Positions 11,423-64,000 are shown, numbered from the stretch's first letter. The stretch: 64,000 nt of DNA from a virus (IMGVR_UViG_3300017912_003441:32001-96000); one strand, 5' to 3'. Notes: generated from the sequence alone by a model not told the origin. A program made the numbers and translations.

Positions 11423-14347
11423 ATGCCTTTTAGCAACAAACAGTCAGACATATTTTACAACGATCAAACGAAAGAAATGTTCGTTTGTACTGTTAGTGCT
11501 ATTACTGCGGCAAGATGCGAAACAGGAGATACTATATACGGTGCATTACCAATAATTTACAAAATCGATAAAGATACAAATTATAGACAAACAATATATC
11601 CTGATAATTTAGACACCTTTCATACAGATGAAAACTCTGATATATTTAAATTAACTCCTCCATGTCCTGTAGAAGATTTAAATTTTGACTCTATAACAAA
11701 ACCTCTCATTAATTATAATAAGGACACGTCAAGATATTCTGTAACCTTTTTAGGTCGGTTCGCTAGTGATGTAGATGGATTAGTAATTAATAATTATATT
11801 TTCGAAGATGTAGATAGTAAGTTTCATTTATTAAAAGCTAAATCTCTTTTACCGCAAAATTCTTTATCAGCTGTTAACGGTCGATTTACATTTGATAGTG
11901 GTTATTTAAACTCTGATTTATATATTGGTGGTAATACTGTACGTAACCAAAACGCATCTTGGTTTAACCCAGCAGATGGAGAAGAAGTAGAAAGGTCTCC
12001 TAACTACATGGTGTCTCCTACTCATGTAGAAAGTACAAGCGCAATAGGCTTTAATCTAATTCAAGACAATACAAACACAGCACTTGATGCTCTTACAGGG
12101 GATAAAAATTTCCCTCTTATGTTTAGCGGTGGTTACATAACTGTTAATCCAAAGTATGCTGCTTATGATCCACAACATACTATAAGAATAGATTTTCGGG
12201 CGAGAAGTTTTAACGTACCTGCTCCGACTGCTTATGCGAGTACCCAAACAGTAGGCAATAGCGCCTCAAGATGGGTCCAGCAATATTCACCAGCTGGTGC
12301 AGGAGAAGGTTTTTGTGTATATTTGTTTGAACAACCTCAAAAGGATCGGTATGTTGTACCTAATGGTGTTGCATCAACACTCGGTTATAGTCCAGCAGAC
12401 TTCAATGTAGTTGAAACCGCTGGCTCTGCTCAAACTACAGTTGGTTTGTTTGAGAGAAACAATTGGAACCCATTTAAAGAAACATATGGTTGTATTGGAG
12501 ACGGTCAAGAGGCAAATAGTTTCATAGGTGTTGGTTTTGATATAGCTGGTAATTTCGGTTCTACTTCAGAAGATAAACCTGGGTGGTTTAATGTAAATAC
12601 AACTACTCCTTCTCCATGCTCAGTATCGATAAGAGGAAACAGGTTTACTAATAATCAAATATTAACCTCAGTAGATCTTTCTGCTGTTCCTGGTTCAACC
12701 GCTATACCTCTACATACGTCTGCAGCTGATGCAGTTTTTGTTGATTACAGAGTAGATCTAACTAATAAAGGAAATAGATTAACTGTCTCACACAAATTAA
12801 CATCGAGTGAAACATATAACACTATATTAGATTTACGTCTTAATAAGATACAGGGAAGTTATTATAGTACGACTGGTAATGCTGGTAATGTAGGTGGTAG
12901 TAATATGTATGATCCGTGGTCTGGTTTTCAGGTACAAGATGATGAATACCCGTTACTAAACATAGGTCTATCTTTTACTACAAGTACAAAAGTAAGTCAG
13001 TTTGAATTACATTCGTTCGAAGTAAAAGGAGTTAGAGTACATAACCCGTGGGATGAGAAAATCGAACCTGAAACACAAGAACAAAAAACACGGATTGATT
13101 ACATAAACAAATCTTCTAAAAATCTTAGAGAACGACTTACTTATTCTGAGCTAGACGATAACGTAGACATAGAAATGGTTGTCCCTGCAAAGAGTAATAT
13201 TGCAAGTGAATTATACGAGCAGACAAATACAACCGAGATTACATTGTGTGATATTAATGAACCAGAATTTATAGAAGAAGAGGTAGAGGTTAAATACACT
13301 GGCATTAGACCGGAAGATATTGATACAGTTGTACAAGCAGTTGAGCGTGGAGATTTAATACCAGAAATAGGTGGAGGTTCAATACCAAGAGCGACTGGAG
13401 ATCTTGTTGTACCGTCAGAACCACTTGCGACTTTATTACCATCTTTCCAGAAACAAATAACAGATACAGGTGAAGTGAGATTCACTCTTGGAGGTAATAA
13501 AGGATGGTCTGCTGTTTGTTTCTTAAAAGGGGATCGAGCACCAATATTAGGCAATCCTGTAAATCAATTATTAACTAATTCTGCAAACGCGTGGAACGGT
13601 CATCTATTTGATCCATTAATATATAACGGTAGAGAATATTGTGTATATATGAGAGTTAGAAACCTAGGGTTAACAACAGATACTAAAATATATTATACAG
13701 AAGATTATGACGAACTTAACGAACTGTTTATCGATGCCATAGAAAAAGACTTTGAAGCGAACGGAGCTGAGAAATATACTAAAGTATGGGAGTTAATGCC
13801 CATGGTGGAAACACCTGCTACCCCGTGGGAAGGTAAAATGTCCGACTGGGAAGGCGCAGATGGAAGACCAGATTGGAACTGGGTTAAAGTCGGTTCTAAA
13901 GAAGACGCAGTTGAGAAATACCAAGACGGTGGCGATGTTTGCATGGTGATAGAGGACCAGAAGGGCTTCCTCAACTTAACTGGTCATCGATTAGGGCAAG
14001 ATAAAAACGGTTATACTGGTTTAGTAGAAATAGATTTCGCTTTACTTGATATTATAAATACCCCAGATGATATAGCAGCAAGCGCAGAAAAAGCTCTAGT
14101 TATAACTTTAGATGAAGCTAAAAGAATGAGCAGATTATACGGTATAAAATGGGAACAGTTAACTGCTTATGAAGATGGTTATACATACTATTTACTGCCT
14201 AACACGATGGGGCAGGTTCCCAATCCTACTACCGCGCAGACCGAACTAAGAGAAAAATTTCCAGACTTTTATGCGAGTCAAGTAGGAACTGGTGGCAATT
14301 GGTTCGCAACTAAAGGTAGTTTTGATCTGAAAGATCTACAAGGTTAA
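11423..14347 (+). CDS. virion protein with L-type (legume) lectin-like domain
   Basis: GEGFCVY...IGVGFDIAGNF resembles the L-lectin GxDGFAF/VEFDT motifs; TAAATA upstream. Confidence 0.6.
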   Translation: MPFSNKQSDIFYNDQTKEMFVCTVSAITAARCETGDTIYGALPIIYKIDKDTNYRQTIYPDNLDTFHTDENSDIFKLTPPCPVEDLNFDSITKPLINYNKDTSRYSVTFLGRFASDVDGLVINNYIFEDVDSKFHLLKAKSLLPQNSLSAVNGRFTFDSGYLNSDLYIGGNTVRNQNASWFNPADGEEVERSPNYMVSPTHVESTSAIGFNLIQDNTNTALDALTGDKNFPLMFSGGYITVNPKYAAYDPQHTIRIDFRARSFNVPAPTAYASTQTVGNSASRWVQQYSPAGAGEGFCVYLFEQPQKDRYVVPNGVASTLGYSPADFNVVETAGSAQTTVGLFERNNWNPFKETYGCIGDGQEANSFIGVGFDIAGNFGSTSEDKPGWFNVNTTTPSPCSVSIRGNRFTNNQILTSVDLSAVPGSTAIPLHTSAADAVFVDYRVDLTNKGNRLTVSHKLTSSETYNTILDLRLNKIQGSYYSTTGNAGNVGGSNMYDPWSGFQVQDDEYPLLNIGLSFTTSTKVSQFELHSFEVKGVRVHNPWDEKIEPETQEQKTRIDYINKSSKNLRERLTYSELDDNVDIEMVVPAKSNIASELYEQTNTTEITLCDINEPEFIEEEVEVKYTGIRPEDIDTVVQAVERGDLIPEIGGGSIPRATGDLVVPSEPLATLLPSFQKQITDTGEVRFTLGGNKGWSAVCFLKGDRAPILGNPVNQLLTNSANAWNGHLFDPLIYNGREYCVYMRVRNLGLTTDTKIYYTEDYDELNELFIDAIEKDFEANGAEKYTKVWELMPMVETPATPWEGKMSDWEGADGRPDWNWVKVGSKEDAVEKYQDGGDVCMVIEDQKGFLNLTGHRLGQDKNGYTGLVEIDFALLDIINTPDDIAASAEKALVITLDEAKRMSRLYGIKWEQLTAYEDGYTYYLLPNTMGQVPNPTTAQTELREKFPDFYASQVGTGGNWFATKGSFDLKDLQG

Positions 14348-21500: not shown

Positions 21501-22526
21501 TTAATCTACTAGCACGATTTCGCGCTCTTTTACAACTGGCTTATCGAACATTACAGTACCAGTTAGCAGGTTCAATGCGCGGCGCTTGAATCGATCCATC
21601 TGACCACCTGGAGTATTCAAACTACCAATCCGATTCTGGATGTATTCATGATTCTTATTCTCAATCGCATTAGCCATCCGAGTTGCATGCTGATGATGAT
21701 CAACATACTCAGTCACCGCGTTAAACGCATCCCACCGCGACTTACCAAGATTACCAGCACCACGTGAAAAGAGAGCTGCAACATCGTTATGCACTCGAGC
21801 AGTCTTCTCATCTTCAGTATCGCGCATCGGGTATAAATGACCAAGAAAGTTATATAACTCTTCTTTTGAAATCGTCCTACTATCAAGTTTCGCGAAATCG
21901 GTATACATGTTCTTCAAGCTGTCAATATTCTTAGCGAAGATTGCCTTAACTGTATCCAATCGCTTTTCCCAATTAGCAAAATGCTGAATTCGATAATCGC
22001 GAGTAGACTCTTTAGTCATAGCTACAAACTGATTATTACATGCACCTCGCATCGACGTCGGGAAGATACAATTAGATACAATACCATCTTGACCAATCAA
22101 CATAGTTAGCATTGAGTTGATCTTATCACCCTTACGATTAGGGATCTCAAACGTATAGTCCTTTGGAAGCTCAGCTTGAACCCAAATTCGACTACCACCG
22201 CGCATAACTCCGGCGGCTTTATATTCAGCGCCATACATTTTGCGAACTTCATCAAATGCATCAATTAATTCATGATTCTGAATTGGTGCATACTTACGAC
22301 CTGTAACTGCATAGACTTGACCAGTCTTATTATTACGCAACCCGTAAAACCTATCAAAGTTATCATCTCCAGTAGCTTTACCGAGATTGACTTGCTCTAC
22401 TTCGAAATCTAGACCAGCCTTAGTGTAAAGCTCATCTTTACTCGAAATCTGATGAACACCTTCAACTGCAATTGCTGAGTGTTCGTTAATGTCTTGAAGG
22501 GCGACGTTCTTATCGTTTATTCTCAT
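21501..22526 (-). CDS. DUF932/DUF945 family (TIGR03299-like) protein
   Basis: AGLDFEV, Y.PIQN.E, G.M.GG.RIW, R.AC.NQ, W.AFNAVTEY.DH. Confidence 0.85.
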   Translation of the reverse strand: MRINDKNVALQDINEHSAIAVEGVHQISSKDELYTKAGLDFEVEQVNLGKATGDDNFDRFYGLRNNKTGQVYAVTGRKYAPIQNHELIDAFDEVRKMYGAEYKAAGVMRGGSRIWVQAELPKDYTFEIPNRKGDKINSMLTMLIGQDGIVSNCIFPTSMRGACNNQFVAMTKESTRDYRIQHFANWEKRLDTVKAIFAKNIDSLKNMYTDFAKLDSRTISKEELYNFLGHLYPMRDTEDEKTARVHNDVAALFSRGAGNLGKSRWDAFNAVTEYVDHHQHATRMANAIENKNHEYIQNRIGSLNTPGGQMDRFKRRALNLLTGTVMFDKPVVKEREIVLVD

Positions 22527-22535
22527 AACTCGTTT

Positions 22536-22580
22536 ATTATAGACTGTCTCTTATTCTTTATCAACTACTTTTTTCCGGAT
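22536..22580 (-). promoter_or_regulatory. early sigma70-like promoter with ATCCGGA upstream element
   Basis: - strand ATCCGGAAAAAAAGTAG-TTGATA-spacer-TATAAT. Confidence 0.75.
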
Positions 22581-22772
22581 ATATGAACCTTTACCCTTTT
22601 TGGGTCTGTGCACTCTGGATCCGGTGTTGAATCTTATTAAGACTCTTGGCTTTAGACTTTTCATAGTTTCTCACTTTAATCTCGAATTTGTTCCGATTAA
22701 CCATTATTCGCATTTTGACTGCCATAACTTCAATCATTATAGCTATTTATGAGAAACAGTCAAGCTTTATCT

Positions 22773-22973
22773 CTAGCTCGCACCAATAGTCGTTTCGTAA
22801 ACGTACTTAGACCGGAGAGGAGTGGTCTTTATGTATTGTGTGAATTCACCGTCTTCGGATAAACATGTCTCAGTTCTCGTCACAGGTTTACATTCTAGAC
22901 ATTCACCTTTACACGTCTCTTCGAAACAATGAGGATTTTTACATATTTTAGGCTGATCTGTATTGTTTGACAT
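22773..22973 (-). CDS. small Cys-containing hypothetical protein
   Basis: 66-aa ORF with several Cys. Confidence 0.45.
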   Translation of the reverse strand: MSNNTDQPKICKNPHCFEETCKGECLECKPVTRTETCLSEDGEFTQYIKTTPLRSKYVYETTIGAS

Positions 22974-53116: not shown

Positions 53117-53509
53117 ATGATAATTCAAGCCACAATTAAGTTTGAAGTTTATGTCGAATTACATGACCAGACATTTGAATCAAAATTGATAGAAATAATG
53201 GGTGGGAAGGAACAAGGAGAGCTAAAAGGAGATATTGAGAGAATTGACGGTCAAAAAATATTTACAATTACTAACTCTGATGTTCATGGAAAGCTGCATG
53301 GGTTGAATCTTGGCTTTCAATTTTATACTGCTACAATATCAAAATGCTTAGATCTTGGCGCGACTGAATTTAGATCTTCTCACTTACTTAACGAAAACAG
53401 TACTGCTGTATGGAAAAAAATCGAACGATTATATTATAATTGTTCTTTCGTTAATAAAACAAAAAAAGATACATATTATTGTGTAAAGCGCGATAAAGAG
53501 TTATTGTGA
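53117..53509 (+). CDS. GNAT-like fold protein
   Basis: HGLNLG..FY...S..VWKK; TAAATA upstream. Confidence 0.4.
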   Translation: MIIQATIKFEVYVELHDQTFESKLIEIMGGKEQGELKGDIERIDGQKIFTITNSDVHGKLHGLNLGFQFYTATISKCLDLGATEFRSSHLLNENSTAVWKKIERLYYNCSFVNKTKKDTYYCVKRDKELL

Positions 53510-54495
53510 AGCAATTTAATTTTCTAAGGAAAAAAACTTTCAGAGAAGAGATTCATCGAGCAGGGTGGAACTGGGTTAATGCCTGTATGGTAAAACGCTT
53601 TCACAACGATACAGCAGACATACTCATAGATGAATTTATAGAAAGAACATTCGATTGGGATTATTGCTTTAACAACGATAAGCCTCAAGTACTTCCTCAT
53701 CACAAAAAAGATTGGATTGGTTTTATACACAACCCAATGATTATACCTAAACCGTTTGATATAAAACAGACCCCTATAAACATGTGCGCTAGATTACCGT
53801 TTGTATTAGCTATGCGTAACTGTAAAGGTATATTTACTTTATCAGACGATTTAGAAGAACATGTAAGATATATTTTTACCCAATACGGATTCGATCATAT
53901 TTTGGTTGAAACATTATTACACCCAACACCGTTAGATGTAGAAGAGTTTAATTTAAATGCATTCTTAGAGAAACCTCAAGTTACTTGTTTAGGTTACTGG
54001 TTGAGAGACTTTGAAAAGTATTGGCTGTTAAACACTCAAATGCCTAAAAATGTCTTATTAGGTAGATTACCTTATGCGCATCAAATATATGATGAGCAGA
54101 TGAAAGAGTTTAAACGTAAGCAAGAGTATACTGGGGAACAAATTAAAGGTAACGTTATAGTACATAAGCATTTAGAGAATAAAGAGTTTGATAAGTTCAT
54201 GACTGATACAATTGGTTTTTTATATCTAATAGACACAAGCGCTAATAACGGTGTTACTGATTGTATATCGAGAAACATTCCTCTTCTAGTTAATTGTCAC
54301 CCAGCTGTAGTACAATACCTAGGTGAAGATTATCCCTTCTATTATAACTCGCTAGAGACTGCTAATAAAAAGATAAATGATATTGAGCTAATAAAAGAAA
54401 CTCATCTGTATCTTAAAAATATGGATAAGTCTAGACTAGATATCAAAACATTTATGACTGAGTTTGAAGCGAGTGAAATTTATCAAGAAGCATAA
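53506..54495 (+). CDS. glycosyltransferase-like (GT-B) protein
   Basis: HR.GW, WIGFIHNP, GYWLR, DTSANN...CI.RN.PLLVN..PAV..YLG..YP. Confidence 0.6.
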   Translation: MKQFNFLRKKTFREEIHRAGWNWVNACMVKRFHNDTADILIDEFIERTFDWDYCFNNDKPQVLPHHKKDWIGFIHNPMIIPKPFDIKQTPINMCARLPFVLAMRNCKGIFTLSDDLEEHVRYIFTQYGFDHILVETLLHPTPLDVEEFNLNAFLEKPQVTCLGYWLRDFEKYWLLNTQMPKNVLLGRLPYAHQIYDEQMKEFKRKQEYTGEQIKGNVIVHKHLENKEFDKFMTDTIGFLYLIDTSANNGVTDCISRNIPLLVNCHPAVVQYLGEDYPFYYNSLETANKKINDIELIKETHLYLKNMDKSRLDIKTFMTEFEASEIYQEA

Positions 54496-54523
54496 AAAAA
54501 AAGACTCCTTTCGGAGTCTTTTG
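54496..54523. terminator. bidirectional terminator
   Basis: AAAAGACTCC-TTTC-GGAGTCTTTT. Confidence 0.85.
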
Positions 54524-55079: not shown

Positions 55080-55364
55080 ATGCCAGAAGGTGAACCAACA
55101 GCAAATTCGACGGAAGCGCAGGCAGCAGTTACTGCCGCGTTAGATTCTGTTACAGTTATTGACAATATCATAGATAATACAGAGGCAGTAGCAGGACAAA
55201 CTACAGCTGAAAAAGCTGATGATGCAGACAGAAACTATCGACACATCGAACTTATGATGGATAAAGATTGGTTTACTGAAACTGCTACAACAGCTCAGAA
55301 GAGTAAGTTCAATACCGCTATTACAGAGGGTAGGACTTATTATCAGTCTAACAGCGCTGCTTAA
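55080..55364 (+). CDS. small fibre-associated protein (putative)
   Basis: RNYRHIELM motif; TAAATA upstream. Confidence 0.5.
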   Translation: MPEGEPTANSTEAQAAVTAALDSVTVIDNIIDNTEAVAGQTTAEKADDADRNYRHIELMMDKDWFTETATTAQKSKFNTAITEGRTYYQSNSAA

Positions 55365-56179
55365 TAATTAAAATACTTGAAATAAAACTCTCCGACCTCT
55401 TTTATATGGTCGCAAGTTTTAACACCAAGAACGTCGATATAATCCTGTGGTAATTCGCTTACTACAGGATTAATTTTATGATCACCGTATATTCCGTATA
55501 CGGTGTCATCTTCTTTTGTAGTCTGTTCTACTTTATTGAAGTTGTGTCCAGTATAAGAGTCAAGTTCTAGATAGTCATATATCCTATCCATTTCTTCATC
55601 TGGATACTTTGTGAAGTCTTCGAATTTTACAAACAACATATGCTTATCCCATCCGCGTTTAATTATCTCACCGAAACGCTCTAATGCTAAGCCTACAGGC
55701 TGTGTTTGTAACCATACAGATGCTCTTTTCTCAACGGTTGTGCCCGACATTTCTGACCAATTAACTATAGGGTCATGGTCGAGAGGGTTCTCTCTAAATT
55801 TCTTTTCCATAGAGGCGATTATCTGTCTAAGATCTCTAACCATACAAATGATCTTAGGTTCATACTCTAAGAATGCATCTAAGAAGTCATAATGTATACC
55901 CCAGCCTCTACTCTTATCTACTACATAGGGCTTATCAGTAATATTATCGTACCACCCATGTATACCTTCATTAAGAAAACCAATAAGACCATCCTCCATA
56001 GTTTTAGAATCTTGAGCTTGAAACTCATTAGATTCGTTAAACATATGTCGAGCAGCAAAGGTTAGCTCTAATACACCTGAGGTAGGTGTAGCATATATGT
56101 CGGGATTTTGAGCAAGTACATTTTGTAATAATGTACTACCTGCCCTCGGCATAGAGGACTGAAAAAAGATTGTTGACAT
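55361..56179 (-). CDS. PAPS-dependent sulfotransferase family protein
   Basis: 5'-PSB SMPRAGSTLL, DKSR.W, 3'-PB VRD...I.AS, FEDF...P. Confidence 0.88.
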   Translation of the reverse strand: MSTIFFQSSMPRAGSTLLQNVLAQNPDIYATPTSGVLELTFAARHMFNESNEFQAQDSKTMEDGLIGFLNEGIHGWYDNITDKPYVVDKSRGWGIHYDFLDAFLEYEPKIICMVRDLRQIIASMEKKFRENPLDHDPIVNWSEMSGTTVEKRASVWLQTQPVGLALERFGEIIKRGWDKHMLFVKFEDFTKYPDEEMDRIYDYLELDSYTGHNFNKVEQTTKEDDTVYGIYGDHKINPVVSELPQDYIDVLGVKTCDHIKEVGEFYFKYFNY

Positions 56180-57246
56180 TACTTTCTACGCTTCTTAGGT
56201 TTTTGTCTATTAGTACGTTTACCTGGTGCTGGAGGGAATGGGTTATTCATTTGAGCTAGCACAGGCTCAGGAGGTAATGGTTTAGCAGTATCAAATAAGT
56301 TCTTCTCTTGCTTGTTACTTACTCTCACCCCTGCAGGTGGTTCGTAAAATTCTTTCTCTTCTAACTCTTCGAGACTGTCTAAGATTGGTTGTGATTCAAA
56401 TATATTATCATTATCAAATGGGCACTCATGTAAGAACTCTCCATTGATCGGATGAGCACCTAAGTAACTATCAATCAAATGTACTTTACGAGTATCAGCA
56501 TTAGATACAATATTGTTATGGAAATCAGGATAACCTAATGTCTTAACGTTATCAATAGGCCATAATACAGTAGATGGTCTATCTAATGCTACCGCTGCAT
56601 GCTGACCAAAACTATCAATTAATAATCTGTTATGAGAATATTCTATAAGAGCAAATAAGTCTCTTACATTAGGAGTTTCAATATAATCAATACCTTTAAT
56701 CTCTAACTGATCTTTCCTTCTAATATGAATAATCTTATACTCTTTATTAACTTCATTTAGTACTTCTTTAAGATTAGATAGAGGTACATCTCTTACCCAT
56801 GATACTGGATAGTCTTGTGGTCCACCTCCGTTAGTTTGTAGAGCAAAAATAGGCTTACCAAAACCACGAAGTTTTCTATCCATATTATCTTTCTCATTCT
56901 TAGATAGAACTATTGTGGGCATTTCTCCGTTGTATGGTACGCCTAGTTGCTCGCACCAAATATCTGCAAGGTATCTCTTACCGTTTAAAAAGTCATGATG
57001 ATGGTATGGTTCGGATTTAAAGATCCAAGTATCTTTACCTTTAATAAAATCTTCAAAGAAGTATGGTGTTGCACCCAGCATATAAAAACGTTCAATATGA
57101 GGATTATTTACCCATACTGCTGCCCATGCAGCTACTACGATTAATTTTCTATCAGGATGTGCTTTTGATATAGCTTCAGCAACTGCCGTAGCCATAATGT
57201 TCTTACCGATACCGCCTTCTACGTGAAAGATAATATGTTTGTCCAC
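56179..57246 (-). CDS. GT9 / ADP-heptose transferase-fold glycosyltransferase (GGIGK variant)
   Basis: EGGIGKNIMATAV..AI..AHP, NNPHI, IDSFGQHAAVAL..P..VLW. Confidence 0.75.
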   Translation of the reverse strand: MDKHIIFHVEGGIGKNIMATAVAEAISKAHPDRKLIVVAAWAAVWVNNPHIERFYMLGATPYFFEDFIKGKDTWIFKSEPYHHHDFLNGKRYLADIWCEQLGVPYNGEMPTIVLSKNEKDNMDRKLRGFGKPIFALQTNGGGPQDYPVSWVRDVPLSNLKEVLNEVNKEYKIIHIRRKDQLEIKGIDYIETPNVRDLFALIEYSHNRLLIDSFGQHAAVALDRPSTVLWPIDNVKTLGYPDFHNNIVSNADTRKVHLIDSYLGAHPINGEFLHECPFDNDNIFESQPILDSLEELEEKEFYEPPAGVRVSNKQEKNLFDTAKPLPPEPVLAQMNNPFPPAPGKRTNRQKPKKRRK

Positions 57247-57305
57247 GTAAAAATTTATCTACATACAATTAAAACTCCAGTGTGTATGTTTTATCAAAGT
57301 TCAAC

Positions 57306-60300
57306 TTACTCTTTATACTTCTTCTCAGCAAGTACCTCAGGTCCTTCCCAGCTTTGAACTGCGGCATCCTTACGTGTACCTATTAATAATACGTTATAAT
57401 TACCATCGGTTTCAGAGCAAACAATTAAACATTTTTGATCTTCTGTTACTTCTCCATATGCATTACCAAAGTGACGATTCGGTGAAATCCATACTTGATC
57501 GTTTTTATTAAGATATCTATAGTAATCAGGTAACTCTATTACTGACCTACAATTAGTTGTCTCTGTTGTCCACCTATAAATATTATCACCTTCGGTTGGA
57601 GACTCTACAAACGAGTGTACCAAGTCATATTTCTCTCGTTTAGCAGGATCAGGATGCGGTATATTAAAACAACCAGAAGACTTACTCAACGCACCACATA
57701 TATATGTATTTGTGGTAGATGCATTACCAATGTAAGTTCTATTACAAGCTGTTGTATTAGCGCAACCTGCATGCTTACCAATACCAATATTATTACCACC
57801 AGTTGTATTACCATATAAAGCACCGCAACCAATTGCAACGTTAGTACTACCACCAGTATTACTATACATCGCGTAATAACCGAGTGCAACATTTTGACCA
57901 CCTGTAGTATTAATTCTTAAAGATTTAGCGCCCATTGAAGTATTTTGTTGACCGGTGGTAGTCGCGTAGGCCGATTGATAACCACTTGAAGTGTTACTAC
58001 TAGCTGACGTGGTTGCATATAACGCACCAACTCCTACCGCAGTATTCTGACCACCAGTAGTGGTTTGTTGCATCGCACAACCACCCACAGCGGTATTAGA
58101 CGAAGCGGTATTATTATATAAAGCGGAAACACCAACCGCGGTGTTCCTAAAGCCAGTAGTATTTTTGAACAAAGCTTGCATACCAAATGCTGTATTATTA
58201 TGACCAGTTGTATTACAGCACATAACTCTATACCCACTAGCAGTATTAAAGAACCCTGATGTAGTAGCTTGCATTGCTTTGAAACCGATCGCAACATTAC
58301 CAGTCCCTGTACCGCTAGGTAATGCACAATAACCTAAAGTAGTACAACTGCCATTTGCGGAACCTGTACTACCACATAAACTACCACCAGCAGATATACC
58401 AGTTAAGTTAGATCCATCTCCGTAAAAACCAGAAGTAGCACAAACAACACCACCTCTTACACAAGTACTACCACATACTCTTGGTGCGACAACACATGAC
58501 CCAGCGCATACATTCTGGTTATGACATACTCGGTTATAAGAAACTGTAAATTTACGCACCCCACCAAATATTGCATCATAACCATAAGTAGCTGACGCAC
58601 CCATTTCTACTTTAATACCGTATTCAGTAGCAGTACCGACATTTTTACAAACCCTCATAGCCCAATCACTATTACTGCATTGCCATATTAATAATGCAGT
58701 GTCGAGCGATGAATTTCTATCAGCACCGTCTATAACAACCGACCCACATCTACATACTTTTAGTGGGTGAATCCAGCCGTTACCTGCTGCATTACCAACT
58801 CCAAATGTTATACAATTTTGAGTCTGAGACCATGCGTAAATATGATTACCAGTTTGCAGATAACCTGGTGTACGTAAATATGAGGAACCTGTAATACCAA
58901 GACAAGAGCAAATATTACTAGCAGCTTTAATACAATTGTTAACATATAAACAACCAGCGCAGTTAAGATGCAGTATGTTAGATCCGGCACAATTTCTAAA
59001 AAAGAAACAACCAGTGTTATAGTTTTGGAAGTACAGGTGACATGAATGAGCTTGTATTTTAGTTTTTTCTCCAGACCAGTTAGAGTGAGTAAAAGTTATA
59101 CCACAACAAGCATGTACACAGTTAGTAGCTAATACATAAGGAGCCCTCGCGCACGTAGAACCGATTATATAAGGTCCGCATACGCTATCAGCCGCGCATA
59201 GATGACCAGCTGAGCGAACCACACAAAAACAACCAGTCGTAGCAGAACCATTACCGACTCCTTGCATTTGTAGGGGGTAAGCAGAGGTATTACAAATAGT
59301 ACTGTTTCTACAGGTTTGTGCATTAGCGCAAGTTAGTGCACAAACACAAGCACAGTTGCCCGGGCAAAAGTACGTACACGTACTATGAGGCATTCCTTGA
59401 GAATCTGTACCACCAGTGCCATCATATACACAAACACAACTATTACACATAGCATCTGAAGCGTAACAATAAAGAGCACCACCACCTCTTAGTAATACAA
59501 TACCACCAGATACTGTATGTACGTGACCGCCTATAACAGTAGTATAAATTTCGCGAACCTGGTTGACTCTAAAAGATCTATCGTTACCTCCCCATTGGGT
59601 ATCTGATGTTTGTTCCCAAGTATAATTTAAACCGCCTTTGTGAGTTGATGTATACCATGTATTAGGAGCAGTAGAATTATAACTTCTATTTATCGAATAC
59701 CTTTTATATCCGAACGTGTAACCTCTAAAATAACACACAGGGTAAAAAGTATCTGCATCTCCGCAAACCATAAATTGTCTCCACTTACAGCAACCTTGTG
59801 CCATATTAGTTACATTAGCTCCGTTAGAGTAAACATTAGGAGCAGTTACACATCCTGTAGCACATACCGTAGGAGCTCTAAGACAGCTAGCAGCGCATAT
59901 AATGCCACAATGACAAAGACAGCCTGTATATAGGTTCATTTTCACACTATTACCTATTCTAAAGTCAGTACAAGAACTAGCTACATGTCGTATAGCCCAA
60001 TTCCCGTTAGAGTCTAATATACCGATATTGTTACTCGAGTTTCCATATAAATAACCACGTGCTGTAGTATTATCGCTCGTAGTTATTACTAGAGCAGTAT
60101 TAGAGTGACACGATCTTAAGTGCATGTACGGAGTATTTGAACATGCTGGATATAGATGTAAGCTACAGTTACCACTCCAATATAACCCTCTTGTTGCAGA
60201 GCCAAATCTTACCCACTCTCCTACACATGTTGCGTTACCTGATACCAAATCACAACCAGCACAAACATTACAATTAGCTTGCATACAACTTACTGCTAAT

Positions 60301-62462
60301 ATACAACCCGCAGACCTTAAGCCCCAGTTTGTAGTCGCGTTAGAACAAAATCTTCCATTATTGTATGCACAAACAACACCAGTACCCCCACCGTGTATAC
60401 CTGCTGTATGACTACTAAAATAAAGTCCATTATTACCTGTAATTCTGTACCAATCAGATGTAACACATATACCACCAGCAGATACAATTGCACAAGATCC
60501 TGTCGCTGTTGAGCAAATCCGACCACCTACAATATTACCATATACACAAGTTGTATTACACAATCTGATATCAGTACTAGAGTTTACTAAAATTCTAGCA
60601 TTACCACCAGAGTCATATATATGAATTTGATTATCACAATTAAAATGTAAACAACCACGCCCAGCACCACAACTAAATCCTTGTAGACCGATATTATTAG
60701 CTTGACCACTATAAAACCGAACATTATTTGTCGCAGTAGAATAAAAATGAAATCCTGTACCTGTGTTATATAGTCCTTGACCTGAATTAGCATTTCTAAA
60801 CCACGAACCAGAACAAATTTCAGTACCACATATATTACCTGTAGAGTGTACACAAGCTGTTCTTACACAAGTTGTACCACAAATAGCAGCACTCTGTACA
60901 CATGATGTACCACAAATAACAGGTGCGTATAATTTACCTGTAAGAATCTGACCACCGTCTTGTATACACTGTAAATTTACACTAGCACTGGTACAATAAC
61001 AACCAGCAGGCCAACAAGCATTAAAACATGAAGTACTATAAGGTACACATGCATCACAACACCACGAATTTAGAAAATACCAACCACTTGAGTGTATATT
61101 ATCTCCTGCTTCATATGCTACGAGATTATTAGTCGCATCACACACATAAACCTGCAAAGCAGCACCGTCGTATGTACTAGAATCCTTTATTCGAATACAC
61201 TGCATAGGTTGATTAATATATCTACTATAGCTTAATACATTAATACTGTTACCTTCTCCATACATATGAGTGGCATAAAACACAACATATTGATGCCTAC
61301 TACCAGTTGTATCTCTAAGAACAAATCTACCACCAGCTCTACTACCTGTATTAATAAAAATTGTATGCCAACCTACAGGAAGATTAGCGCTTGCATTTAC
61401 TTGAGGTAAATAACGGGTACCCATAATACTCCATGTCGGGAACGAACGAGTCATACTAGTTGTAGAACACAAACAATTAACGCTCAACTGACCAGCTATT
61501 GTATTACACACATCCCCAACGGTACATATAGAACATACACGTGCTTGACCTGTTGCACAAACAGTAGCTCCTCTAAGACAACTAGTACCACATATTCTCG
61601 GAGATTGTAAACAAACACAACCGTATACTCCACCGCCTTGACACATTACCATAGCTGTAGTGCCATTAGGATTTGCTGTGGCATCGGCGCAGTTATTTAC
61701 TACAAACTCAAACCGACCTCCTCCTGCTTCATCTCCTGCTATTATTTGGTTCACACCGTTATTACCAAGTTGAAGTTTATTCCAGCAAAATAATCCTCTA
61801 TAATTATTATTCCCGTCGCTATAACGAGCTGCATAAATCGGATATTTTATACAACCTGTACAAGAACATATAAAACCACATGATGTGGAAGCGAACCTCA
61901 AACCCTGGTGGTTCAACTGAGCTAAATTTTGTGTTGTACCAGACCCATTATCTTCTTGCCAAACAAACCCTCTCTGGTAACTAGTACCAGACCCGTTGTT
62001 ACCTAACATTTTAAAATACATATTATAATCGCCTTGTGACCAAAGCTCACCAGCTCCACTACCTCCGGTCGAAGACATATATATTTTATAACTCTGGGAA
62101 CCGTTCCAGAATCTAATACCGTTACCATCCCCAGCGTCAACAAGGTAATTGTCTGAGTATGTATTACCAGAACTACGAAGACAGGAAGCAGCACACACAG
62201 TAGGAGTACACAAAGTATTACAAACTTTAGTATGAGTAGAGCCAGAGTCTCCGATGATAATAGGACAGTTACCAGCCGCGCGAAAATGGAGATTAGTACA
62301 ACTCTGTATTGTGTTATATAAGTTCTCTGAACCAACACATATATTACCAAAGCGCACACAACCACTAGCGTTATCACTATTCGCACGTATAGTAGGAGTA
62401 CATAAGGTACTTCCTGCAGTAAGCTCGACTACTTTTCCATATTGTTGACTTAATAATCCCAT
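57306..62462 (-). CDS. Cys-rich long tail-fibre protein
   Basis: [VI]C[GA]xxC[VL] repeats, NTAxGxxAL.NTTG beta-helix repeats, C-terminal F.I.HP...L.HSFVESP..DNIYR...LPDY domain. Confidence 0.8.
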   Translation of the reverse strand: MGLLSQQYGKVVELTAGSTLCTPTIRANSDNASGCVRFGNICVGSENLYNTIQSCTNLHFRAAGNCPIIIGDSGSTHTKVCNTLCTPTVCAASCLRSSGNTYSDNYLVDAGDGNGIRFWNGSQSYKIYMSSTGGSGAGELWSQGDYNMYFKMLGNNGSGTSYQRGFVWQEDNGSGTTQNLAQLNHQGLRFASTSCGFICSCTGCIKYPIYAARYSDGNNNYRGLFCWNKLQLGNNGVNQIIAGDEAGGGRFEFVVNNCADATANPNGTTAMVMCQGGGVYGCVCLQSPRICGTSCLRGATVCATGQARVCSICTVGDVCNTIAGQLSVNCLCSTTSMTRSFPTWSIMGTRYLPQVNASANLPVGWHTIFINTGSRAGGRFVLRDTTGSRHQYVVFYATHMYGEGNSINVLSYSRYINQPMQCIRIKDSSTYDGAALQVYVCDATNNLVAYEAGDNIHSSGWYFLNSWCCDACVPYSTSCFNACWPAGCYCTSASVNLQCIQDGGQILTGKLYAPVICGTSCVQSAAICGTTCVRTACVHSTGNICGTEICSGSWFRNANSGQGLYNTGTGFHFYSTATNNVRFYSGQANNIGLQGFSCGAGRGCLHFNCDNQIHIYDSGGNARILVNSSTDIRLCNTTCVYGNIVGGRICSTATGSCAIVSAGGICVTSDWYRITGNNGLYFSSHTAGIHGGGTGVVCAYNNGRFCSNATTNWGLRSAGCILAVSCMQANCNVCAGCDLVSGNATCVGEWVRFGSATRGLYWSGNCSLHLYPACSNTPYMHLRSCHSNTALVITTSDNTTARGYLYGNSSNNIGILDSNGNWAIRHVASSCTDFRIGNSVKMNLYTGCLCHCGIICAASCLRAPTVCATGCVTAPNVYSNGANVTNMAQGCCKWRQFMVCGDADTFYPVCYFRGYTFGYKRYSINRSYNSTAPNTWYTSTHKGGLNYTWEQTSDTQWGGNDRSFRVNQVREIYTTVIGGHVHTVSGGIVLLRGGGALYCYASDAMCNSCVCVYDGTGGTDSQGMPHSTCTYFCPGNCACVCALTCANAQTCRNSTICNTSAYPLQMQGVGNGSATTGCFCVVRSAGHLCAADSVCGPYIIGSTCARAPYVLATNCVHACCGITFTHSNWSGEKTKIQAHSCHLYFQNYNTGCFFFRNCAGSNILHLNCAGCLYVNNCIKAASNICSCLGITGSSYLRTPGYLQTGNHIYAWSQTQNCITFGVGNAAGNGWIHPLKVCRCGSVVIDGADRNSSLDTALLIWQCSNSDWAMRVCKNVGTATEYGIKVEMGASATYGYDAIFGGVRKFTVSYNRVCHNQNVCAGSCVVAPRVCGSTCVRGGVVCATSGFYGDGSNLTGISAGGSLCGSTGSANGSCTTLGYCALPSGTGTGNVAIGFKAMQATTSGFFNTASGYRVMCCNTTGHNNTAFGMQALFKNTTGFRNTAVGVSALYNNTASSNTAVGGCAMQQTTTGGQNTAVGVGALYATTSASSNTSSGYQSAYATTTGQQNTSMGAKSLRINTTGGQNVALGYYAMYSNTGGSTNVAIGCGALYGNTTGGNNIGIGKHAGCANTTACNRTYIGNASTTNTYICGALSKSSGCFNIPHPDPAKREKYDLVHSFVESPTEGDNIYRWTTETTNCRSVIELPDYYRYLNKNDQVWISPNRHFGNAYGEVTEDQKCLIVCSETDGNYNVLLIGTRKDAAVQSWEGPEVLAEKKYKE

Positions 62463-62468
62463 AGTATT

Positions 62469-64000
62469 TTAAAAAACTCTTTTAATTTTCACACATGTGT
62501 TATTTTTATATGACCCGCCCGCTACTTGAATTTGCAAGCAAGTTGCACAAGCAGCAGCATAACACTCGCACCCTGTTGTACCGACTAGTAATTTAGGTAC
62601 GGCAGTTATTGTCCCACCACCCGAATCATGTACAGTACCTCTAACAAAATTATTTACGTGGTTAATGTACTTAGTCACTGCTGAACCACTCCAACCTGTG
62701 GTAACATATACTGACATATGTACTATATCTCTATATGATCCTGAACCAGCACAATTCGGGTTAGCTGAAACATATACATCATATACTGCATCATACCCTG
62801 TTACACAACTAGTATTAAAACAAATAGTACCCGTACACATAGTAGCGCATGAAAGGGTATCTCCTTCCATACCATCAGCACAAACCGTACCTGTAACGCA
62901 TAGATTACCATGAACTTTTGTAAACTGACATATATGAGTTGTACCTGATGTAATTGTAATTCTTTCTGCTGCAGTACTATTTGCGCAACCTCTATGCAGT
63001 ATTAAATCTTCATCATAAGAACCAATACAACCAGTATTTACGATCCATGGTTTATTTACATAAAATTTACTTCTATCAGTTATAAAATGGCCCCAACTAC
63101 CTGTTGGGCAAATGTCTATATACCCAGCAGAAGAACACGTACGAGACCCATTAGCTAGAGTGCGGAATCTCGCCGCACCTGCTTGATAAAGGTAAGTAGA
63201 AGAACCACTACCAAAATATAGCACCCATTGATTGCAAGAATCGTTATAAATACCACCACCACCACAATCTGATGCTGACATAAAAGTTGTTCCACAGAAA
63301 TGAACACCACCATACCCTCCTTTGTTTCCTTCAATTGCCAATGCACCGTAATCAGAAGGTGCACTACCACTACTAGAAATAACATTAGTAGCTAAACATG
63401 TTGTACCACAAACTTTACCAGCAACAAATGTACTGTTACTAGAGTCTCCGTCATGCCTTTTAAGAGCTAAACTAGGGGCAGAGTAAGTGCCACCGGTCTG
63501 GAGATATGGGCCGCAATTAGATGGATAACACCACCTAACAATACTACCAGAAGTCTCAATAACATTCCCCGTAACACAACTTGTAGCACAAAGAACGGAA
63601 CCATGCACGCAAGCATTTAACATTTTACTTGAACCAATATAAAATCCTGAAGCTCCAGCTGTTTGATCTATACGTACTGTAGTTGAATCTTCAGTACTAT
63701 CAAAGTGAAACGAATTTCCAGCACCACTAGCATCACAAGAATCAGCATGAAAATGTCTAAGGTAACCTCTCTGGGTACTTGCAGGATTATCATTAAACAT
63801 AATTGACGTACCACCACCATTAAGACTATTAACAAGGTTAAGAGCATAACAAGCAGTCCCTCCGTCTTGAATTGCATTTAATACACCTACAGCACAGGTA
63901 CCTGCAACTGTTAACTTACCTCCTGTAATTGTACAAGTAGCTCGTAAACACACACTAGTAAAATCTTCTCCTAAAGATAATATACCACTATTACCTTCTA
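62469..64000 (-). CDS. Cys-rich tail-fibre protein, 5'-truncated
   Basis: Frame is open to the window edge; fibre-like modules (GYIDI.P..S.GHF.TDR..FY) with many Cys. Confidence 0.75.
   Translation of the reverse strand, partial: EGNSGILSLGEDFTSVCLRATCTITGGKLTVAGTCAVGVLNAIQDGGTACYALNLVNSLNGGGTSIMFNDNPASTQRGYLRHFHADSCDASGAGNSFHFDSTEDSTTVRIDQTAGASGFYIGSSKMLNACVHGSVLCATSCVTGNVIETSGSIVRWCYPSNCGPYLQTGGTYSAPSLALKRHDGDSSNSTFVAGKVCGTTCLATNVISSSGSAPSDYGALAIEGNKGGYGGVHFCGTTFMSASDCGGGGIYNDSCNQWVLYFGSGSSTYLYQAGAARFRTLANGSRTCSSAGYIDICPTGSWGHFITDRSKFYVNKPWIVNTGCIGSYDEDLILHRGCANSTAAERITITSGTTHICQFTKVHGNLCVTGTVCADGMEGDTLSCATMCTGTICFNTSCVTGYDAVYDVYVSANPNCAGSGSYRDIVHMSVYVTTGWSGSAVTKYINHVNNFVRGTVHDSGGGTITAVPKLLVGTTGCECYAAACATCLQIQVAGGSYKNNTCVKIKRVF

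Follow-up and report, generated by a model that had tools for sequence, protein, structure and literature searches.

A GT9-fold glycosyltransferase-like family linked to phage fibre genes carries lysine at the position of the catalytic aspartate

The heptosyltransferases WaaC (HepI; 2H1H/2GT1/6DFE) and WaaF (HepII; 1PSW) of family GT9 have a two-domain GT-B fold in common with the Veillonella parvula protein 3TOV. In HepI the strictly conserved Asp13 is the catalytic base, and the backbone of Met11 and Gly12 touches the phosphates of ADP-heptose (bioRxiv 10.1101/2021.06.16.448588). A GT9 fold is also found in TibC, a member of the BAHT group (TibC/TibA, AAH/AIDA-I; 4RAP/4RB4), which heptosylates the beta-helical TibA adhesin in E. 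coli with Asp110 as its base, the D110A variant being inactive (PMC4358343). Here we describe a GT9-fold glycosyltransferase-like gene of an uncultured marine T4-like phage, in which Lys stands where these enzymes carry the catalytic Asp. The gene lies in a stretch of 64,000 nucleotides (IMGVR_UViG_3300017912_003441:32001-96000; the window, to which coordinates refer), taken from an IMG/VR record of 119 kb that is approximately 59% complete and encodes gp32, RecA-like, DnaB-like and baseplate-wedge genes typical of T4-like phages.

The gene (56179..57246, minus strand) starts with GTG and encodes 355 amino acids. Its translated N-terminus, VDKHIIFHVEGGIGKNIMATAV, is exactly as quoted in an earlier model-generated annotation of this DNA (the sequence-only reading), which had called the product GT9-like. 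Sequence models are silent on this protein: Pfam gave no match at E ≤ 0.1, the GT9 model PF01075 included, and a genome-wide scan likewise gave none for this protein; NCBIfam gave no match, and a PDB sequence search returned none, either with the single protein or with its profile. The protein belongs to PHROG 8954, which has no function assigned there. The assignment to the GT9 lineage is therefore based on structural matches. An AlphaFold2 model built with 32 homologues (predicted local distance difference test (pLDDT) 85, predicted TM-score 0.81) consists of two Rossmann-like halves. The top Foldseek match of this model was the GT9 protein 3tov (E 2e-11), followed by WaaF, TibC and WaaC at 1e-6 to 1e-10, and an exhaustive structural scan with VIA-align gave Z-scores of 22.5 (3tov), 20.2 (WaaF, 1psw), 19.0 (TibC, 4rap) and 18.4 (WaaC, 2h1f), compared to 10.6 for the highest non-GT9 GT-B chain. 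The fold thus bears out the GT9-like label. GT9-fold chains of the plant chloroplast NADH dehydrogenase-like (NDH) complex were also among the top structural matches (7wff, Z 18.8 in VIA-align; 9grx in Foldseek). At the sequence level, two distant relatives barely exceed the Pfam GT9 cut-off of 22 (22.9 and 22.4 bits) in the donor-motif region, and one neighbour cluster in the ESM Atlas has PF01075 in 15% of its members. On the strength of the predicted structure, the transferase falls within the GT9 structural lineage, yet forms a separate family without a model of its own; it would be a soluble two-domain GT-B glycosyltransferase, with catalytic activity presumed.

To place the N-terminus we used profile-profile alignment. 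A search for WaaC homologues gave just 83–96% identical sequences, which are unfit for a profile, so that the GT9 profile was assembled from paralogues and plasmid genes: E. coli WaaC, WaaF, WaaQ and WaaU and eight diverse plasmid-borne GT9 genes. All 12 sequences have Gly-Asp after strand 1. When the phage-family profile was aligned to this profile with hhalign, the match was strong in both the global (98.4% probability, E 3.9e-14) and the local mode (96.7%, E 4.5e-10), and the alignment spanned almost the entire enzyme. Ile13-Gly14-Lys15 was paired with Met11-Gly12-Asp13 of WaaC at top column confidence, and the structural register from VIA-align agrees, with residue 3 of the model opposite residue 1 in WaaC and in WaaF. 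Alignments by hhalign to the single WaaC or WaaF sequences were too weak to place the N-terminus. Lys15 (57202-57204), at the end of the Gly-rich loop GGIGK between strand 1 and helix 1 (57202..57216, minus strand), thus fills the column in which GT9 enzymes carry the Asp of Gly-Asp, and the by-eye alignment that had first put a Lys at the WaaC Asp13 position was right.

The donor side is of the GT9 type. In the motif DSFGQHAAVALDRP (56575..56616, minus strand), Asp211 and His216 are paired by hhalign with Asp261 and His266 of WaaC, and Arg152 falls approximately at Lys192. The sequence-only reading had written this motif as DS..H.A.AL..P; the motif is indeed retained, but the spacing from DS to H is three residues rather than two, which gives the same D+5 distance as D261-H266 in WaaC. 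The likeness to WaaC and WaaF comprises the Asp and His at D+5 followed by AL..P, a basic residue where phosphate is bound, and a loop of equal length and register between strand 1 and helix 1. Unlike WaaC and WaaF, the phage enzyme has Lys (rarely Arg in the family) for Asp13 and unrelated loops in the acceptor domain, is not detected by the Pfam GT9 model, and is encoded beside fibre genes and paired with a sulfotransferase rather than with LPS (lipopolysaccharide)-core genes.

The Lys is not a peculiarity of this phage. At E ≤ 0.001 the family has 630 representatives, and relatives are encoded on at least 472 viral-contig stretches; no close relative turned up among cultured phages in megablast and tblastn searches, which matched only two single-virus genomes. 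Among 253 family proteins, the Lys15 column holds K in 245 and R in 4, with Y, V, M and D once each. All 80 viral loci have K, within a loop GG-x-GK in which x is I, L, M, C, H or A, and the readable copies from genome loci have K (66) or R (2). Even a diverged subclade that has lost the loop glycines retains Lys or Arg. As far as alignments can tell, Lys is a trait of the whole family. The donor-binding half is retained as well: the NGG loop is kept, and Asp211 (245/256), His216 (249/256) and Arg152 (247/259) are nearly fixed, which argues for a working nucleotide-sugar site and against a dead enzyme.

The rare variants have neighbourhoods of their own, as read from contigs of 2–4 kb in the Asp and Val cases. 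The Val variant (P0185; L171/L172, Logan contigs) adjoins genes for transketolase, ribulose-phosphate 3-epimerase and RpiB and is followed by a Lys-type paralogue; these sugar genes could possibly supply sedoheptulose-7-phosphate, a hint at a heptose donor in the Val subclade. The sole Asp variant (P0260; L170, Logan contig) lies 3′ of a fibre gene whose C-terminal end shares 53% identity with the fibre end in the window, and is followed by a gene with a GT25-looking start; its contig is too short for the Cys content of that fibre to be read.

This pattern of conservation bears on whether the protein is an enzyme at all. A GT9-fold protein without the canonical base could be a fibre assembly factor or a sugar-nucleotide-binding scaffold, comparable to the plant NDH subunit whose chains rank so high among the structural matches. 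We regard such a pseudo-enzyme as highly unlikely: the donor-site residues and the replacement Lys are almost invariant across 250 diverged members, and the regular association of the gene with those for sulfo-, methyl- and glycosyltransferases, as neighbours or in fusions (see below), would be hard to understand unless a sugar is placed. The interchange of Lys and Arg points to a role in charge rather than in proton abstraction, and charge is the most likely contribution of Lys15 as judged from the alignment; it could stabilise a thiolate, hold the diphosphate, bind an anionic acceptor or act as a partner of Glu79.

Glu79 is a candidate alternative base. It belongs to the Glu79-Pro80-Tyr81 loop past strand 4 (57004..57012, minus strand), where 91% of the family have Asp or Glu at position 79 and 96% have Tyr81. 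From Rossmann-type topology this loop should adjoin the Lys15 loop, and Glu79 may therefore serve as the base. The presence of this conserved acidic residue makes it untenable to claim that no base is available.

Mechanistic precedent for a Lys or Arg at the base site is provided by POFUT1 (GT65) and OGT (GT41), inverting GT-B enzymes without a base in which Arg or Lys stabilises the leaving diphosphate and which modify protein domains that are folded, Cys-rich or repetitive. Both share only the generic GT-B fold with the phage enzyme (Z 9.0 for POFUT1), and donors and families differ. The known enzymes that form S-glycosidic bonds to Cys or another thiol belong elsewhere: SunS, ThuS and GccA are GT2 proteins of GT-A fold acting on small peptides, while the plant enzyme UGT74B1 is GT1. 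No homology of these S-glycosyltransferases to the phage protein was found.

The genes upstream of the transferase encode fibres that are rich in Cys. The transferase start is 60 nt past the stop of a gene for a tail-fibre protein of 1718 amino acids (57306..62462, minus strand) with 127 Cys (7.4%), whose C-terminal part has YadA-head-like NT repeats. Upstream of it is a second Cys-rich fibre gene, the 3′ part of which lies in the window (62469..64000, minus strand) and which in the whole genome encodes 1337 amino acids with 6.1% Cys; upstream of this, outside the window and extending to genome position 111637, is a gene for a 4357-residue protein with 4.1% Cys. The transferase gene thus directly follows three consecutive Cys-rich giants with approximately 386 Cys in all, compared to a proteome mean of 1.9% Cys and 0.2–1.0% in proteins of the baseplate region (4.8–19.8 kb). 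The 4357-residue fibre is built of 14-residue NT-type repeats of the YadA-head kind. By eye, many of its Cys occupy variable repeat positions that are charged or polar in other repeats, as if they were exposed at the surface and not locked into a disulfide ladder. Cys-Asn occurs 61 times in this fibre versus 22 expected. Two other approaches to the fibre Cys gave nothing usable: substitution patterns of Cys columns were uninformative, as homology is mostly C-terminal and the alignments are repetitive, and Cys spacing and sequon counts were dominated by the repeat motif and did not separate S-, O- and N-linkage.

We assessed whether this neighbourhood recurs by counting Cys-rich open reading frames (ORFs; at least 3.5% Cys and at least 300 amino acids) around family members. 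At viral loci, before de-duplication, the Cys-rich share was 41/231 for large ORFs up to 5 kb from the transferase and 2/128 for those beyond (Fisher p 8e-7), and in the de-duplicated set the counts were 25/129 near and 0/78 far. At genome loci the effect of distance on Cys-rich neighbours was not significant (28/233 versus 5/59). Most of the Cys-rich neighbours (59/76) fall into one BLAST-linked family found in phages and Bacteroidota. In 14 of the 43 lineages that remain after de-duplication of the viral loci, all neighbours of at least 500 amino acids within 5 kb have less than 2% Cys (for example 878 amino acids at 0.7% and 1732 at 1.3%), and the Lys is kept in every one of them. The proposed link to Cys-rich fibres therefore stands as an enrichment within 5 kb, but not as a strict association; being invariant with or without such neighbours, the Lys is a family trait and not a correlate of thiol-rich neighbours.

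These data bear directly on the idea, put forward in the sequence-only reading, that the enzyme is an S-glycosyltransferase which places a sugar on Cys thiols of the fibres, with Lys15 stabilising the thiolate so that no base is needed. The replacement of the base by Lys or Arg throughout the family, the enrichment of Cys-rich fibre-family proteins near the phage gene and their frequency in Bacteroidota cassettes, and the apparent exposure of Cys in the 4357-residue fibre are all in its favour. Nevertheless, we consider S-glycosylation distinctly unlikely. The Lys is just as invariant where the large neighbours are poor in Cys, Glu79 may supply a base, and exposed Cys could simply cross-link fibres after lysis. 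Furthermore, SunS, ThuS, GccA and UGT74B1 are not known to have a Lys-for-base swap, UGT74B1 keeping its His base, and the usual task of a Lys or Arg in GT-B enzymes is to hold the phosphate as it leaves. A thiol acceptor consequently does not follow from a Lys that is present family-wide and that would fit a phosphate-stabilising role equally well.

Directly downstream of the transferase is a gene for a sulfotransferase of 272 amino acids (55361..56179, minus strand; PF13469, E 1.9e-13; PF00685, E 2e-11), which has the N-terminal motif PRAGST (residues 11–16) for the 5′-phosphosulfate of 3′-phosphoadenosine 5′-phosphosulfate. It shows weak similarity (E 1.5e-8, far under the model cut-off) to NoeE, a sugar sulfotransferase. 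Its ATG overlaps the stop codon of the transferase in the sequence TAATG, and the two genes appear from this overlap to be translationally coupled. A sulfotransferase gene adjoins the transferase gene in 36 of the 43 viral lineages, and in other members of the family an FkbM methyltransferase or GT25 domain is either fused to the transferase or encoded after it. As all of these partners are sugar-acting enzymes (sulfo-, methyl- and glycosyltransferases), the pairing supports real glycosyl transfer followed by capping.

Bacteroidota carry the family in a comparable arrangement. Metagenome-assembled genomes (MAGs) of Flavipsychrobacter and Chitinophagaceae have cassettes, on contigs of up to 1 Mb, that consist of a Cys-rich repeat protein of approximately 1100 amino acids, an NHL-propeller protein with a type IX secretion system sorting domain, a Lys-type transferase and often a sulfotransferase. 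Such cassettes were seen at loci L101, L109, L112, L120, L137, L139 and L153. The ~1100-residue protein has Gly/Asn repeats and, at its N-terminus, an F-x-x-F-C-D-P-like motif; no signal peptide was recognised by eye. The transferase is sometimes a tandem pair of Arg-type and Lys-type genes or is fused to FkbM. In 14 MAGs, mostly of Bacteroidota, there are two to three Lys-type transferase genes on separate contigs, and in these multi-cassette genomes every cassette pairs one large repeat protein with one transferase. Such one-to-one pairing is more readily explained by a dedicated protein substrate than by a single global glycan of the envelope.

This last point is relevant to the possibility that the transferase-sulfotransferase pair modifies a glycan of the host envelope (LPS core, capsule or the glycan of a surface glycoprotein) during infection and might thereby block superinfection or the sticking of progeny to debris, in the manner of seroconversion genes beside tailspike genes. 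GT9 enzymes classically work on LPS cores, some Joint Genome Institute records label relatives as ADP-heptose:LPS heptosyltransferase, some relatives are fused to GT25, which is annotated in LPS biosynthesis, and receptor-modifying genes often lie beside receptor-binding genes. We nonetheless find a host-glycan target unlikely, given that several cassettes, each with its own large repeat protein, occur per bacterial genome, that no other polysaccharide-assembly genes were recognised among the few cassette neighbours scanned with Pfam, and that none of the acceptor-binding motifs of WaaC or WaaF recurs in the N-terminal acceptor domain. There is, in addition, little precedent for seroconversion by a lytic T4-like phage.

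The explanation we favour, and hold about equally likely to be right or wrong, is fibre glycosylation of some kind, resembling that by TibC, followed by sulfation of the sugar. It is suggested by the TibC precedent, a GT9-fold enzyme acting on a beta-helical adhesin, together with the gene linkage. TibC, a soluble cytoplasmic enzyme, is the best analogy for the working of the phage enzyme: a GT9-type domain is encoded beside a beta-solenoid repeat protein in BAHT systems as in the phage, and tibC itself adjoins tibA. The analogy has its limits. In the phage loop the catalytic Asp110 is replaced by Lys, the match to TibC, whose architecture is iron-binding and dodecamer-forming, covers its residues 95–391 with the first ~95 residues absent from the phage protein, and TibC has no sulfotransferase partner and acts on autotransporters, as opposed to phage fibres or Bacteroidota repeat proteins.

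According to this TibC-like model, the transferase would act in the infected cytoplasm and glycosylate the beta-solenoid fibres that the phage itself encodes. Sulfate would next cap the sugar, a part that methyl or a further sugar would play in relatives. A heptose could serve as donor or, given RmlA-, RmlB- and RmlD-like enzymes, a 6-deoxyhexose. Outside the window, the same genome (genome positions 12239-14132, 22088-22966; L167, L168) has genes for an RmlD-like enzyme, a 4,6-dehydratase (RmlB/GDP-mannose dehydratase-like) and an RmlA-like enzyme, which suggests that the phage makes its own activated 6-deoxy sugar; this nucleotide 6-deoxyhexose pathway could feed one of the phage's glycosyltransferases. 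Lys15 would most likely act through its charge, by which it could hold the diphosphate on departure or else a nucleophile that is anionic or of low pKa, and proton abstraction, if needed, might fall to another residue, with Glu79 as the candidate, or to the departing phosphate.

Several observations weigh against this model. The loss of the canonical base could mean that activity has been lost, and the protein is recognised by no Pfam or NCBIfam model, its function being proposed from sequence and a predicted structure. The proximity of Glu79 to Lys15 is a matter of topology. Many of the viral contigs behind the context counts are short, and the 14 lineages with Cys-poor neighbours deviate from the arrangement seen here. 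No adenosine 5′-phosphosulfate kinase was found in the 59%-complete genome fragment. Finally, as seroconversion genes also often adjoin fibre genes, gene linkage is shared with a receptor-modifying function.

Further features of the locus were noted. Residues 321–355 of the transferase (56182..56286, minus strand) form a disordered C-terminal tail (pLDDT <50) that is confined to close relatives and consists of a Pro-rich stretch followed by a polybasic, Lys/Arg-rich one; it may bind membrane, nucleic acid or an acidic fibre surface. Of the 60 nt that separate the fibre gene from the transferase gene, those immediately 5′ of the GTG start include GATAAATT (57250-57262, minus strand), which is similar to the T4-type late promoter TATAAATA, and no Shine-Dalgarno sequence is evident ahead of this start. 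An ORF of 329 amino acids (53506-54495, plus strand), with no Pfam or NCBIfam match, is convergent on the cassette. Its homologue is part of a 625-residue protein encoded directly 3′ of the sulfotransferase at two other loci (L013 and L015), and the ORF may belong to the same module as the transferase-sulfotransferase pair. Between this gene and the minus-strand genes, positions 54499-54522 form a perfect 10-bp stem with a 4-nt loop, flanked by T-runs on both sides, which looks like a bidirectional terminator for the convergent genes.

In the literature searched we found no description of this family, of pairs of sulfotransferase and glycosyltransferase genes at fibre genes, or of a GT9 enzyme with Lys at the base position, and nothing relevant on virion sulfation. 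Collectively, our results describe a family derived from GT9 in which a catalytic residue has changed and which has a conserved new genomic partnership. A swap to Lys with the donor site kept implies that the acceptor chemistry differs or that the base has moved elsewhere, each of which would be a novelty for the GT9 fold. Were S-glycosylation to prove true, of phage fibres and of Bacteroidota surface repeat proteins with the sugar then sulfated or methylated, this would be the first S-linked virion glycan, the first S-glycosyltransferase of GT-B/GT9 type and the first sulfated phage particle. That the transferase is steadily paired with sulfo- and methyltransferases 3′ of fibre genes suggests that the phage itself makes capped glycans and carries them on its receptor-binding fibres; in aquatic viruses, these would influence how hosts are recognised, how stable particles are and how readily they stick.

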